IMG/VR virus record: IMGVR_UViG_2703719366_000012
DNA: 11,222 bases
Origin: a virus
Taxonomy: Duplodnaviria > Heunggongvirae > Uroviricota > Caudoviricetes
Direction: 5' to 3' (one strand)
In this document: positions 1 through 3,000 of the stretch, in pieces
Numbering within the stretch: position 1 is the stretch's first letter
Layout: every line of letters begins with the position of its first letter
Program-made: the position numbers

Positions 1-3000
1 GGATTTTTTCCGCCGGTAATCCCAGAGAGCGACGCGATACTGCCTCAGGTAATGCGTCCACCACCTGATTGCAGACTGCCCACCAGGATAATTCAGCCAG
101 CGATAATTCCCGCTCCTGCGTGCCATTCATTACATGGCGTATGACGTCAATCATCCAGGCTGTCAGATTTTGTTGAGTAAGTTGCTCAAGTGATTCGGAG
201 GTCTGGTCGCGCAGCTGGTTGTCGCAGTGCCAGCACAACACCATTGCGCCAGCACCGTAACTGTGAATAACGGTTTCGCTGTGATGATAATCGCCGTGTG
301 GCCACTGGCAGGATTTCACGTGACGTAATAACCAGTCAGACAGTGCACCAGCGCCGCCAGCTGCACGAATCACCCGCTCATCGCTGAAAAATGGCAGCAG
401 TGATTTATCTTCCGCCAGCGGCTGGCGAACAGCAGGAACCGCTCCAGATGGCAGCGCCCGCATGTTTTTCGGTTCCGGCTCCACCAGCACCCTGCCGCGA
501 TGAAAAACTGGCAATGATTCACGACCGGGCTTAAGGACCACCAGCCCGAGTTCCGGAACCAGAACAGGTCGAAGTAATACCCGCACATTACCTCCAGACG
601 CGCTGACGGTAGCAGGCATGTGTCCGTGGCAGATGTGCACGAACAGGAAGATATACAGAAACGGTCCAGGTCAGACGATCAGCGTTCAGACTCCGCTCCA
701 CACGGACACCGCGACGCAGATACGCCTCTTGAAGCATATCTGCCTCATCGATCGTACAGAACAGATAGTGAAACCAGCCATACTGAGGCGCACGAAAACG
801 CCTCCCCTGCTTAATTTCCGGGTCGGCTTCAGAATTGTGGGATTTTATGTGTTGTGTCATCGGATTCTCCGGTGACAGCAGGTGTCAGTTGTTCAGGCTG
901 ACTGCGCGAATTGTAAGGCAATACGCCGGAATGTACAAACAGAAAACCCGTCAGTAAGACGGGCTTAACAAGCAGGGGCGGTTACTTTAATAATTTCAGT
1001 GCCTTTACATCAACTTCAACACTGCTCAGGTCTTTATCAATTTCACCCTCAATTCTTACTTTGTCTTTCGGAGAAACATTCTGCCCGGCCCATACGCTGT
1101 CATCAATATCCGTGACAATTGTCCCGCTATTGTCACGAAACTCATAACGTTCATCACCCACTTTTTTAACGATGCTCCCTTCAAGGATAACCCATGCATC
1201 ATCCTTCAGTTCTTTTGCCTGCGCTACTGTTGAACGCTCTGCTTCTGGCCCCTGGAAACCACCCTGCTGTGCAAAAGCGCCAAAAGACACACCGGAAATA
1301 AGTGCTGCAATCAATACCTTTTTCATTCATAGTCCTCTTTCAGAGATGAACATTCAAACAGCATTTTCAGTATGGTAAAGCGCGGGTGCGTTGAGGATGC
1401 CTGACACATCAGAGGTGGCGGGAGATTACTCCCCCGCCTGGTCTCTTACTTCTCAGATTCGTAGTCTACGAAGACAGCGACCTCCGTCTGACCGGTTCGG
1501 ATTCGCACCTCGCAGAGGTCTTTCCTCGTTACCAGTGCCGTCACTATGACGGTTAAACAGATGACGATCAGGGCGATTAACATCGCCTTTTGCTGCTTCA
1601 TAGCCTGCTTCTCCTTGCCTTTCGGCACGTAAGAGGCTAACCTACATGTGTTCAGCATGGATTGAGCCTCAGATTAATGTTAAGCGTCTTGCAGGACGCG
1701 TAATGTTAACTGGGGCTTTTCTCTATCTGCCGTTGGTGTTCATGCCCGAGGCAGATAGCCTCAAGCACCCGCAGCAATTCTACTTAACTATCCTTTTCCC
1801 GCAAACCGTTTTTATCCCCAGCGGCAAATCGAATACACCACCAGCGCCACCGCCATCGCAATTCCTACCGTTGTGAATGCTTCAGGCCAGGTCATTGATT
1901 CACCTCCTGCGGCGGTTCTGGTAGCGACATCCAGTGGGTTGCTTGCCTAAGATCATTACCCGGACTAACTGCTATACCTCCGCGCCGGAACGTGCCTCCG
2001 AGATAGCGTGCGGAATATATTAATGGCCCAGCCTCGCTATCGATATTCATCGAAATAAGCACGTTCTGGCTCTTTTCAGGCATTCGCTCAGTACAGCTTA
2101 TCCAGCCATCCAGAGTTATCGGAGATCTGGTTGACGTTTCCGAGATTTCCCGAAAATTGTTGGTTGACGAATTCTTATTTTCCCGAAAGTTTCCGGCCTG
2201 AAGCATGGCGACGCGGCAGGCGTTCCAGCCATCAGCATATGTTTTAGTTACACCGTCGAGATGGCAGGTAAGCAAATCCATTTCATCAGGCACTACCATT
2301 GCTATCGGCTCTGCTTCCAGTGATGCCAGCGCGATACGAAACACATTAGCCAGCAGGCTGTCTGAAGACTTGTTATCGTGCGCCGAGTCGCTCAGGAAGC
2401 CTGTGATGTATGATTTAATCTCCGCGCGTTCTCTGGTAATAGTGCTCATATCAGTTTTCCTTATACGGATTAATTTTATTGTGCAGTGCGCTGAATGATT
2501 CCCATGTCACATCGGTATATAGCTCAATAACTGGTTCAAATGTCCTTCCAATTATCCAGACCAGTAATAGCGGGGATATCGGTATCATCAACACTATAAA
2601 CAGAATGAAAAACAGAAACTCTGTTGTTCTGCTCTTTCGTGGGTAATTTTTTTCTAAATAATGTTTCATTTCTTACCGCCCTTTCGGGCGGCCTCCTGAT
2701 GTTCTGAGGGTGCAGGAATCCCTCCGGTTAAGGATTTAATAAAAATCGTTTCTGATTTAAATCTTCAGTATTTAGTTGTTAGTTGGTTTATCGCCTTTAT
2801 GCTTCAGCCTTATTTCGCAACCAGACACAAACCGGGCCATCTTCCGTATCATGAATGGAACCAATAAACCAGCCATCGCCCTCTGGTCGTTCCGGTTCCC
2901 ATGCAGAAATATCAGCATCACACGCATCAAGGTCAGCACATCCTTCATCTCTGAAGCAGAGGACGTATTGAAGATTATTTTCCTCCATCCAGGCGTTAAA

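Follow-up and report, generated by a model that had tools for sequence, protein, structure and literature searches.

We analyzed an 11,222-nt stretch of DNA from a virus of the class Caudoviricetes (IMG/VR record IMGVR_UViG_2703719366_000012; hereafter the window), which is 100% identical over its whole 11.2 kb to Escherichia coli O157:H7 chromosomes. On its minus strand, the region 1770-1381, together with an antisense Sok RNA gene on the plus strand, constitutes with a probability of about 95% a complete hok/mok/sok cassette, an autonomous type I toxin-antitoxin system belonging to the hokD/hokW lineage and situated in the delayed-early (nin-like) region of a lambdoid O157:H7 prophage. The cassette is already known, being a near-identical paralogue of the annotated and experimentally characterized hokW-sokW locus of phage 933W/Sp5. 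A first-pass annotation, made from sequence alone, had described a Hok toxin gene without an obvious partner behind a 290-nt untranslated leader, and had suggested that hairpins and an in-frame upstream ATG in this leader, together with a GC-rich 3' stem, could make it an autonomous hok/sok-type locus within the prophage early operon. The suggestion was borne out by an end-to-end match to Rfam family RF01794, ~99.5% identity to hokW/mokW/sokW and covarying RNA pairings, but the toxin does have a partner: it is a plus-strand antisense Sok RNA, whose gene is invisible to a reading based on open reading frames (ORFs). RefSeq likewise lists only a Hok/Gef family protein (WP_000813258.1), without mok, Sok RNA or an upstream 27-amino-acid ORF, so that the toxin looks orphan in an ORF-based reading.

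The toxin gene itself (minus strand, 1601-1446, 51 amino acids) had been recognized correctly as HokD/RelF-like. Its product covers all 42 positions of the Pfam model PF01848 (HOK_GEF) with 81.1 bits against a cut-off of 22 and is 92% identical to K-12 HokD; its Shine-Dalgarno (SD) sequence, AAGGAG, lies at 1616-1611. At the RNA level, the sok family RF01794 matched window positions 1770-1596 with 113.5 bits (gathering score 59) over model positions 1-157 of 157. Because this match lies on the hok-sense strand and the last bases of the model correspond to the hok AUG, it identifies the locus and not the orientation of Sok. Using megablast, the 531-nt segment 1370-1900 showed 97.4% identity to 933W, VT2-Sakai and many other Stx phages, and the exact segment was present at >=99% identity (that is, at least 99%) in 505 complete-genome E. 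coli records. The GenBank record of 933W (AF125520) annotates mokW, hokW and the sokW antisense RNA in the matching stretch. Transfer of these features to the window placed mok at 1658-1446, hok at 1601-1446 and Sok at 1650-1720 on the plus strand.

The 390-nt mRNA unit (1770-1381) departs from the 933W hokW unit at only two bases. One (1693) lies in the apical loop of the Sok hairpin, and the other (1438, a G here) is located at the foot of the 3' stem, to which it adds one G-C pair. The Hok and Mok coding sequences are identical in the two copies, as are the Sok promoter, the Sok 5' tail and the RNA elements tac, ucb, dcb and fbi described below. Upstream of the unit, one substitution falls in the hok promoter spacer (1790), while 11 of the 14 differences are located within the 27-amino-acid ORF and leave its frame unbroken. 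The neighbors are also of the same types, with a DUF551 gene and the 27-amino-acid ORF upstream and a YgiW/BOF-family gene downstream. In contrast to 933W, the cassette here is hosted by another prophage, which occupies the Qin site, is non-Stx and apparently defective, and carries dicF and dicB.

The close relationship extends to the reagents of Takada et al. 2021 (PMC8621323), all of whose primers and probes match the window exactly, including the sokW northern probe YO-592 (1650-1679), the hokW probe (1613-1642) and the flanks of the -10 knock-out. In the Sp5 copy studied there, HokW was toxic and was neutralized by sokW expressed from its own promoter, mutation of the sokW -10 box abolished antitoxin protection, and RNase III and Hfq contributed partially (PMC8621323). 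Sp5 lysogens contained hokW mRNA as well as sokW RNA prior to induction. Upon mitomycin C treatment, sokW RNA was lost rapidly and hokW mRNA was not raised, while HokW was made in a RecA-dependent manner and went to the inner membrane; deletion of the locus delayed lysis and halved phage yield (PMC8621323).

The Sok gene of the window (~71 nt, 1650-1720, plus strand), transferred from the sokW misc_RNA feature of AF125520, differs from sokW by a single base, the one at 1693. In its RNA, a single-stranded 5' tail is followed by one long hairpin (1664-1717) and finally by a U-rich tail, GGGGCUUUUCUCU; its complementarity to the hok mRNA takes in the ucb, mok SD and mok AUG regions. A 78-nt antisense RNA folded at -33 kcal/mol (z = -4.9), which none of 200 shuffled sequences equaled. 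The motif GCGTC-ttgcag-GACGC, previously recorded as a leader hairpin flanked by AATGTTAA direct repeats, is indeed present at 1684-1699, with AATGTTAA at 1676-1683 and 1702-1709, but we reassign it as the terminator stem of Sok. The AATGTTAA arms form G-U wobbles in Sok and C-A mismatches in the mRNA complement, making the hairpin stronger in the antisense RNA. An extension of this hairpin by 18-20 nt is specific to the hokD/hokW lineage. Additionally, the Kluyvera locus L033 has a longer Sok stem in which both arms have changed yet remain complementary.

The first-pass annotation had proposed a search for a plus-strand antisense promoter around 1620-1720. A generic scan called none, but homology and the published mutagenesis primers place the Sok promoter at 1615-1643 (plus strand), with a -35 box TTGCCT at 1615-1620, a 17-nt spacer, a -10 box TAACCT at 1638-1643 and a transcription start near 1650. 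These boxes align with the TATCCT/TTGCCT boxes of the plasmid hok/sok locus. Furthermore, the 'pro-less' primers YO-421/YO-422 of Takada et al. replace exactly 1638-1644, containing the TAACCT box, and both primer flanks match the window perfectly. The hok promoter was likewise placed by homology, whereas the Sok -10 box is supported by published mutagenesis as well.

The supposed 290-nt untranslated leader (1602-1891) turned out to be composite, consisting of the 27-amino-acid ORF (1895-1812), the hok promoter and a true hok 5' untranslated region (UTR) of 169 nt (~1770-1602). The promoter (1805-1777, minus strand) comprises a -10 box TAGAAT at 1782-1777 and, after a 17-nt spacer, a weak candidate -35 box TTTGCG at 1805-1800. 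Of 27 aligned leaders, the 26 that extend this far all have a -10 box of the form TAnnAT, at an unchanged distance from the 5' end of tac. The conserved mRNA 5' end, GGGUGCUUGAGG, begins at 1770, where the Rfam model also starts. The full-length hok mRNA unit would thus comprise ~390 nt (1770-1381, minus strand), with a probable +1 at ~G1770 and a 3' end probably just past fbi.

The in-frame upstream ATG at 1658, also noted earlier, was found in the ORF list as the start of a 70-amino-acid frame (1658-1446, minus strand) that is in frame with hok and the same as mokW of 933W. Its SD, GAGG (1670-1667), precedes the mok AUG by 8 nt and corresponds to the GAGG that serves as mok SD in plasmid R1 (PMC9841398). 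GAGG is invariant in 27 of 27 aligned leaders, and GAGGC is invariant in an alignment of 16 sequences. In 24 of 27 loci, the distance from the mok AUG to the hok gene downstream is 57 or 58 nt; 18 of them have 57 nt, which keeps mok in frame, whereas 58 nt places it out of frame. An in-frame mok thus represents a common variant of the family, and K-12 mokC has it too.

As a separate observation on the hok frame, the Tyr47 codon UAC (1463-1461, minus strand) falls within a predicted 7-nt loop, CUACGAA, closed by UAGA/UCUG (1454-1468). This loop resembles the tRNA-Arg anticodon-loop context used by TadA for adenosine-to-inosine editing. Editing at A1462 would turn Tyr47 into Cys (Y47C). Tyr-to-Cys recoding has been reported for hokB, and something similar for hokC, hokD and hokE (preprint 10.1101/2025.08.07.668861).

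In the window analysis we observed directly the sequence elements, their pairings, their conservation and their covariation. The leader structures are real: the 390-nt mRNA folded at -162.6 kcal/mol (z = -7.65), and none of 100 shuffled sequences folded as well. At the 5' end, the fold and the Rfam/RNAalifold consensus delineate the translational activator element, tac (GGGUGCUUGAGGCUAUCUGCC, 1770-1750, minus strand). In the minimum free energy (MFE) structure of the full-length RNA, tac 1770-1759 closes on the fold-back inhibitory element, fbi (CCUCAACGCACCC, 1396-1384, minus strand), in a 12-bp duplex with one bulged C (-21.5 kcal/mol), and the mok AUG pairs with sequence beside fbi. The anti-SD box, ucb (GGCAGAUAGAGAAAAGCCCC, 1731-1712, minus strand), can pair with either the mok SD region or tac. 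In the full-length MFE structure, the mok SD is sequestered through pairing of its region with AGCC (1717-1714) of ucb, whereas in the consensus structure (Rfam; RNAalifold on 16 diverse leaders) tac 1769-1750 pairs with the whole ucb box, with four covarying pairs. The consensus also contains the mok SD/dcb stem-loop (1670-1633, minus strand), in which GAGGC (1670-1666) pairs with GCCUC (1637-1633); all five pairs are kept in 16 of 16 sequences. This stem is the GAGGCT/AGCCTC hairpin of the first-pass annotation (1633-1638 and 1665-1670), although the arms are separated by 26 and not 25 nt.

The GC-rich stem noted at 1417-1438 is present as a 3' UTR stem-loop with a 9-bp stem in all folds (GGCGGGGGA-GUAA-UCUCCCGCC, 1438-1417, minus strand), but it is not the fold-back element it had been taken for; fbi lies farther downstream, beyond the interval considered at the time. 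In R1, the last stem-loop shields the truncated mRNA from 3' exonucleases (PMC9841398), and by analogy the stem-loop at 1417-1438 would protect the processed hok mRNA. The tac/fbi duplex occurred 59-70 nt after the hok stop codon in 28 of 28 intact loci from Escherichia, Shigella, Kluyvera, Photorhabdus, Erwinia and plasmids, with compensatory changes across lineages (for example, GGGUGC/GCACCC to GGCGC/GCGCC and GAGG/CCUC to GAGA/UCUC). It failed only for hokC of two K-12-type genomes (K-12 and L023), in which the 3' region is interrupted by IS186. A candidate duplex in K-12 hokC was rejected as spurious (z = -1.5), this locus being uninformative owing to IS186 in its 3' region. In constrained folds, forcing the tac/ucb pairing cost 10.6 kcal/mol in the full-length RNA and 1.6 kcal/mol in an RNA lacking fbi. 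These penalties fit the R1 model of activation by 3' processing (PMC9841398); the small penalty without fbi means that thermodynamics permits a refolding switch but does not prove one.

These elements suggest the following mechanism, in which 3' processing, the refolding switch and mok-hok coupling are modeled by homology on plasmid R1. The promoter with its -10 box at 1782-1777 would act constitutively, and the resulting hok mRNA, ~390 nt long (1770 to ~1381), would be stable. The full-length mRNA would be translationally inert, with tac paired to the 3' fbi and the mok SD held by ucb. Slow 3' trimming to the 1438-1417 stem-loop would remove fbi, upon which tac would pair with ucb and free the mok ribosome-binding site in the SD/dcb hairpin. 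Translation of mok from 1658 would then be coupled to that of hok, giving the 51-amino-acid inner-membrane toxin. Short-lived Sok would pair with the mok initiation region of the processed mRNA, blocking translation and leading to RNase III cleavage. Should Sok synthesis stop, for example on prophage induction, Hok would be made and the membrane damaged.

For comparison to characterized hok/sok loci, we used 933W, the hokD locus of an IncY P1-like phage-plasmid, K-12 hokC and hokB, a conjugative-plasmid hok and 47 further loci. The latter came from a single-protein search and belonged to Escherichia, Shigella, Kluyvera, Photorhabdus, Pantoea, Citrobacter and Erwinia; an alignment of six Hok proteins contained no block conserved enough for a profile-based locus search. 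In the compared loci all elements align in identical order, and every one of them is present in the cassette studied here. The hok/sok (parB) locus of plasmid R1 and related plasmid loci share the architecture and the Rfam family, the common order being promoter, tac, ucb, Sok terminator hairpin, mok SD, mok AUG, dcb/Sok promoter, hok SD, hok, 3' stem-loop and fbi. The sequences themselves have diverged, with HokW only 44% identical to R1 Hok and DNA similarity to the plasmid loci confined to a core of ~47 nt. Compared with the plasmid type, in which mok is out of frame (58 nt), mok is in frame here (57 nt upstream), the Sok hairpin carries its lineage-specific extension, the tac/fbi helix has the bulged C and no terminator hairpin follows fbi.

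The chromosomal hokC (gef)/mokC/sokC locus encodes a HokC that is 80% identical to the window Hok. Its mok is likewise in frame and starts MLNTCR, and the two loci share the 5' end GGGUGCUUGAGGCU. As here, Sok and the mok start overlap by 9 nt (sokC 16952-17010 versus the mokC start at 16960). On the other hand, hokC lacks the Sok hairpin extension and has a leader of 150 nt versus 169 nt here, and the K-12 copy is disrupted downstream by IS186. The IncY hokD locus showed 87.8% identity over exactly 1782-1384, its homology starting precisely at the hok -10 box. Since this interval corresponds to the cassette, the cassette behaves as a discrete module.

These boundaries bear on the alternative that hok lacks control of its own and just follows the preceding genes of the early-right operon, being translated from read-through transcripts once the repressor is lost, with incidental leader structures. 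Gene order would be compatible with this idea, as hok runs in the same direction as cro, a ydaT-like gene, O, P and the DUF551 gene, this whole set pointing away from a CI-like HTH/S24 repressor, and no terminator-like site separates hok from the genes upstream. The appearance of Sp5 HokW protein only after RecA-dependent induction would also agree. Yet in Sp5 both RNAs exist prior to induction, and the level of hokW mRNA does not rise upon mitomycin C treatment. In addition, a conserved -10 box directly precedes a conserved 5' end, the same cassette boundaries recur in unrelated contexts (IncY phage-plasmids and chromosomal sites) and the leader pairings covary, which together make control by read-through alone highly improbable. 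On top of the autonomous control that we favor, read-through may add a second layer.

Several points weigh against an autonomous, functional cassette. The generic scan of 1300-1950 for sigma-70 consensus promoters and terminators called neither promoter and no terminator, and the hok and Sok promoters are both weak consensus matches; we do not hold this null result against the promoters, given their weak hexamers and a Sok stem whose length exceeds the limits of the scan. In the RNA lacking fbi, the unconstrained MFE structure favors a local 5' hairpin over tac/ucb by 1.6 kcal/mol. No terminator-like site follows fbi (1327-1383, minus strand), unlike in K-12 hokD (AACCCGCTTCGGCGGGTTTTT) and the plasmid hok locus, so that transcription may proceed from hok into the YgiW/BOF-family gene (1326-982). 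What is stated for the window copy on putative transcription starts, the Sok 3' end, mRNA processing and toxicity derives from 933W/Sp5 or R1. Moreover, the host prophage looks defective, and the role in phage release seen for Sp5 may therefore not apply here. Lastly, chromosomal hok loci tested earlier gave no post-segregational killing (bioRxiv 10.1101/2025.08.07.668861).

The last two points would also suit an inactive relic, carried passively in a decaying prophage without a functional toxin or antitoxin, like the chromosomal hok loci of K-12. RefSeq annotation of identical DNA indeed shows a truncated integrase and recE and an inserted IS1203, and K-12 hokA, hokC and hokD are disrupted by IS elements or rearrangement. 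The cassette itself, however, shows no such decay, with no damage to its ORFs, its two promoters, tac, ucb, dcb, fbi or the Sok hairpin. It is separated from a functional copy by two bases, one of them within a hairpin loop and one that lengthens the 3' stem by a pair. Together with its retention in the 505 genome records mentioned above, this renders a relic very unlikely, and we maintain the reading as an intact type I locus.

The positional counterpart of the locus is K-12 Qin hokD (relF). The prophage occupies the Qin site next to rspB, and its genes follow the order of K-12 Qin collinearly at ydfU, hokD and ydfA, but the first-pass annotation had remarked that no relBE-like genes precede hok here, unlike in the relB-relE-hokD arrangement of K-12. 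This was confirmed: RefSeq annotation of identical DNA contains neither relB nor relE, and tblastn with K-12 RelE and RelB returned only an 8-residue match (E = 3.3). At the DNA level, identity to K-12 hokD (93.8%) covers only 1374-1615 and ends at the hok SD. Upstream of this point, K-12 has relE and relB in place of tac, ucb, the mok start and the sok gene with its -10 box, while it keeps hok, the 3' stem and an orphan fbi.

One could take the 92% identity of Hok to HokD and the collinear flanks as signs of a K-12-type relBE-hokD locus in disguise, with K-12 as the ancestral arrangement and the leader as a degraded relE/relB remnant. We give this explanation almost no credence. Pairwise alignment, blastn and tblastn matched nothing in 1616-1891 to relE or relB at either the DNA or the protein level, and the remnant was rejected as a candidate. 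Furthermore, in other E. coli and Shigella genomes a HokD-type C-terminus, identical to that of HokD, occurs behind a full leader of 169-170 nt (L014, L017 and L019). The K-12 locus, having kept fbi without its partner tac, without the mok start and without the whole sok gene, is the truncated form. On this comparison of sequences, relB-relE-hokD of K-12 is the derived arrangement, with the O157 prophage retaining the complete cassette at the same site, which corrects the textbook picture of K-12 relBE-hokD.

The window variant and the 933W/Sp5 variant coexist, both at 100% identity, in the same O157:H7 chromosomes (for example, NZ_CP017251.1 at 2,586,740 and 2,074,932), and the O157 records listed contain 5-10 hok-like and 5-7 Sok-like places. 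We tentatively consider that the cassette might be wired to the prophage switch in cis through read-through and to its sister copies in trans through shared Sok, although we think it rather less probable than not. In cis, early-right read-through after CI cleavage, running head-on toward the Sok promoter without an upstream terminator, could occlude this promoter and soak up Sok. Such a model would account for the RecA-dependent loss of sokW RNA, for which Takada et al. gave no explanation. In trans, Sok from a defective, non-inducible prophage could buffer HokW of the Stx2 phage in the natural host. This buffering would be invisible in the published K-12 experiments, as K-12 hokD lacks sok. 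If true, antitoxin cross-talk among near-identical O157:H7 Sok genes could alter the contribution of hokW to lysis and Stx-phage release.

Outside the cassette, the 27-amino-acid hydrophobic ORF (MTWPEAFTTVGIAMAVALVVYSICRWG, 1895-1812, minus strand), found in the ORF list, starts with an ATG that overlaps the stop codon of the upstream DUF551 gene (ATGA). It has no Pfam match and is absent from the RefSeq annotation of identical DNA. Using tblastn, it was recovered at full or near-full length with 59-100% identity in 90 phage records, and it probably encodes a genuine small membrane protein belonging to lambdoid nin regions.

Elsewhere in the prophage, a full-length DicF small RNA (Rfam RF00039, 75 bits) was identified at 8980-9031 (plus strand), upstream of dicB (RefSeq ~9206-9394), marking an immunity region of the Qin/dic type. 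The CI-like ORF (212 amino acids, 6698-7336, plus strand) comprises an HTH_3 domain just under the Pfam cut-off and a Peptidase_S24 domain. RefSeq annotates only its C-terminal 113 amino acids ('LexA family protein'), suggesting that the start codon is probably under-called. In strain PV15-279 (L002 6308-8300, NZ_AP018488.1), nearly the whole early region above window position ~3100 is missing, including the replication genes, the repressor region, dicF and dicB. The genes immediately upstream of DUF4014, DUF551 and hok there directly adjoin a partial integrase beside rspB and a copy of IS1203, in what looks like an IS-associated deletion that spared the hok/sok cassette.

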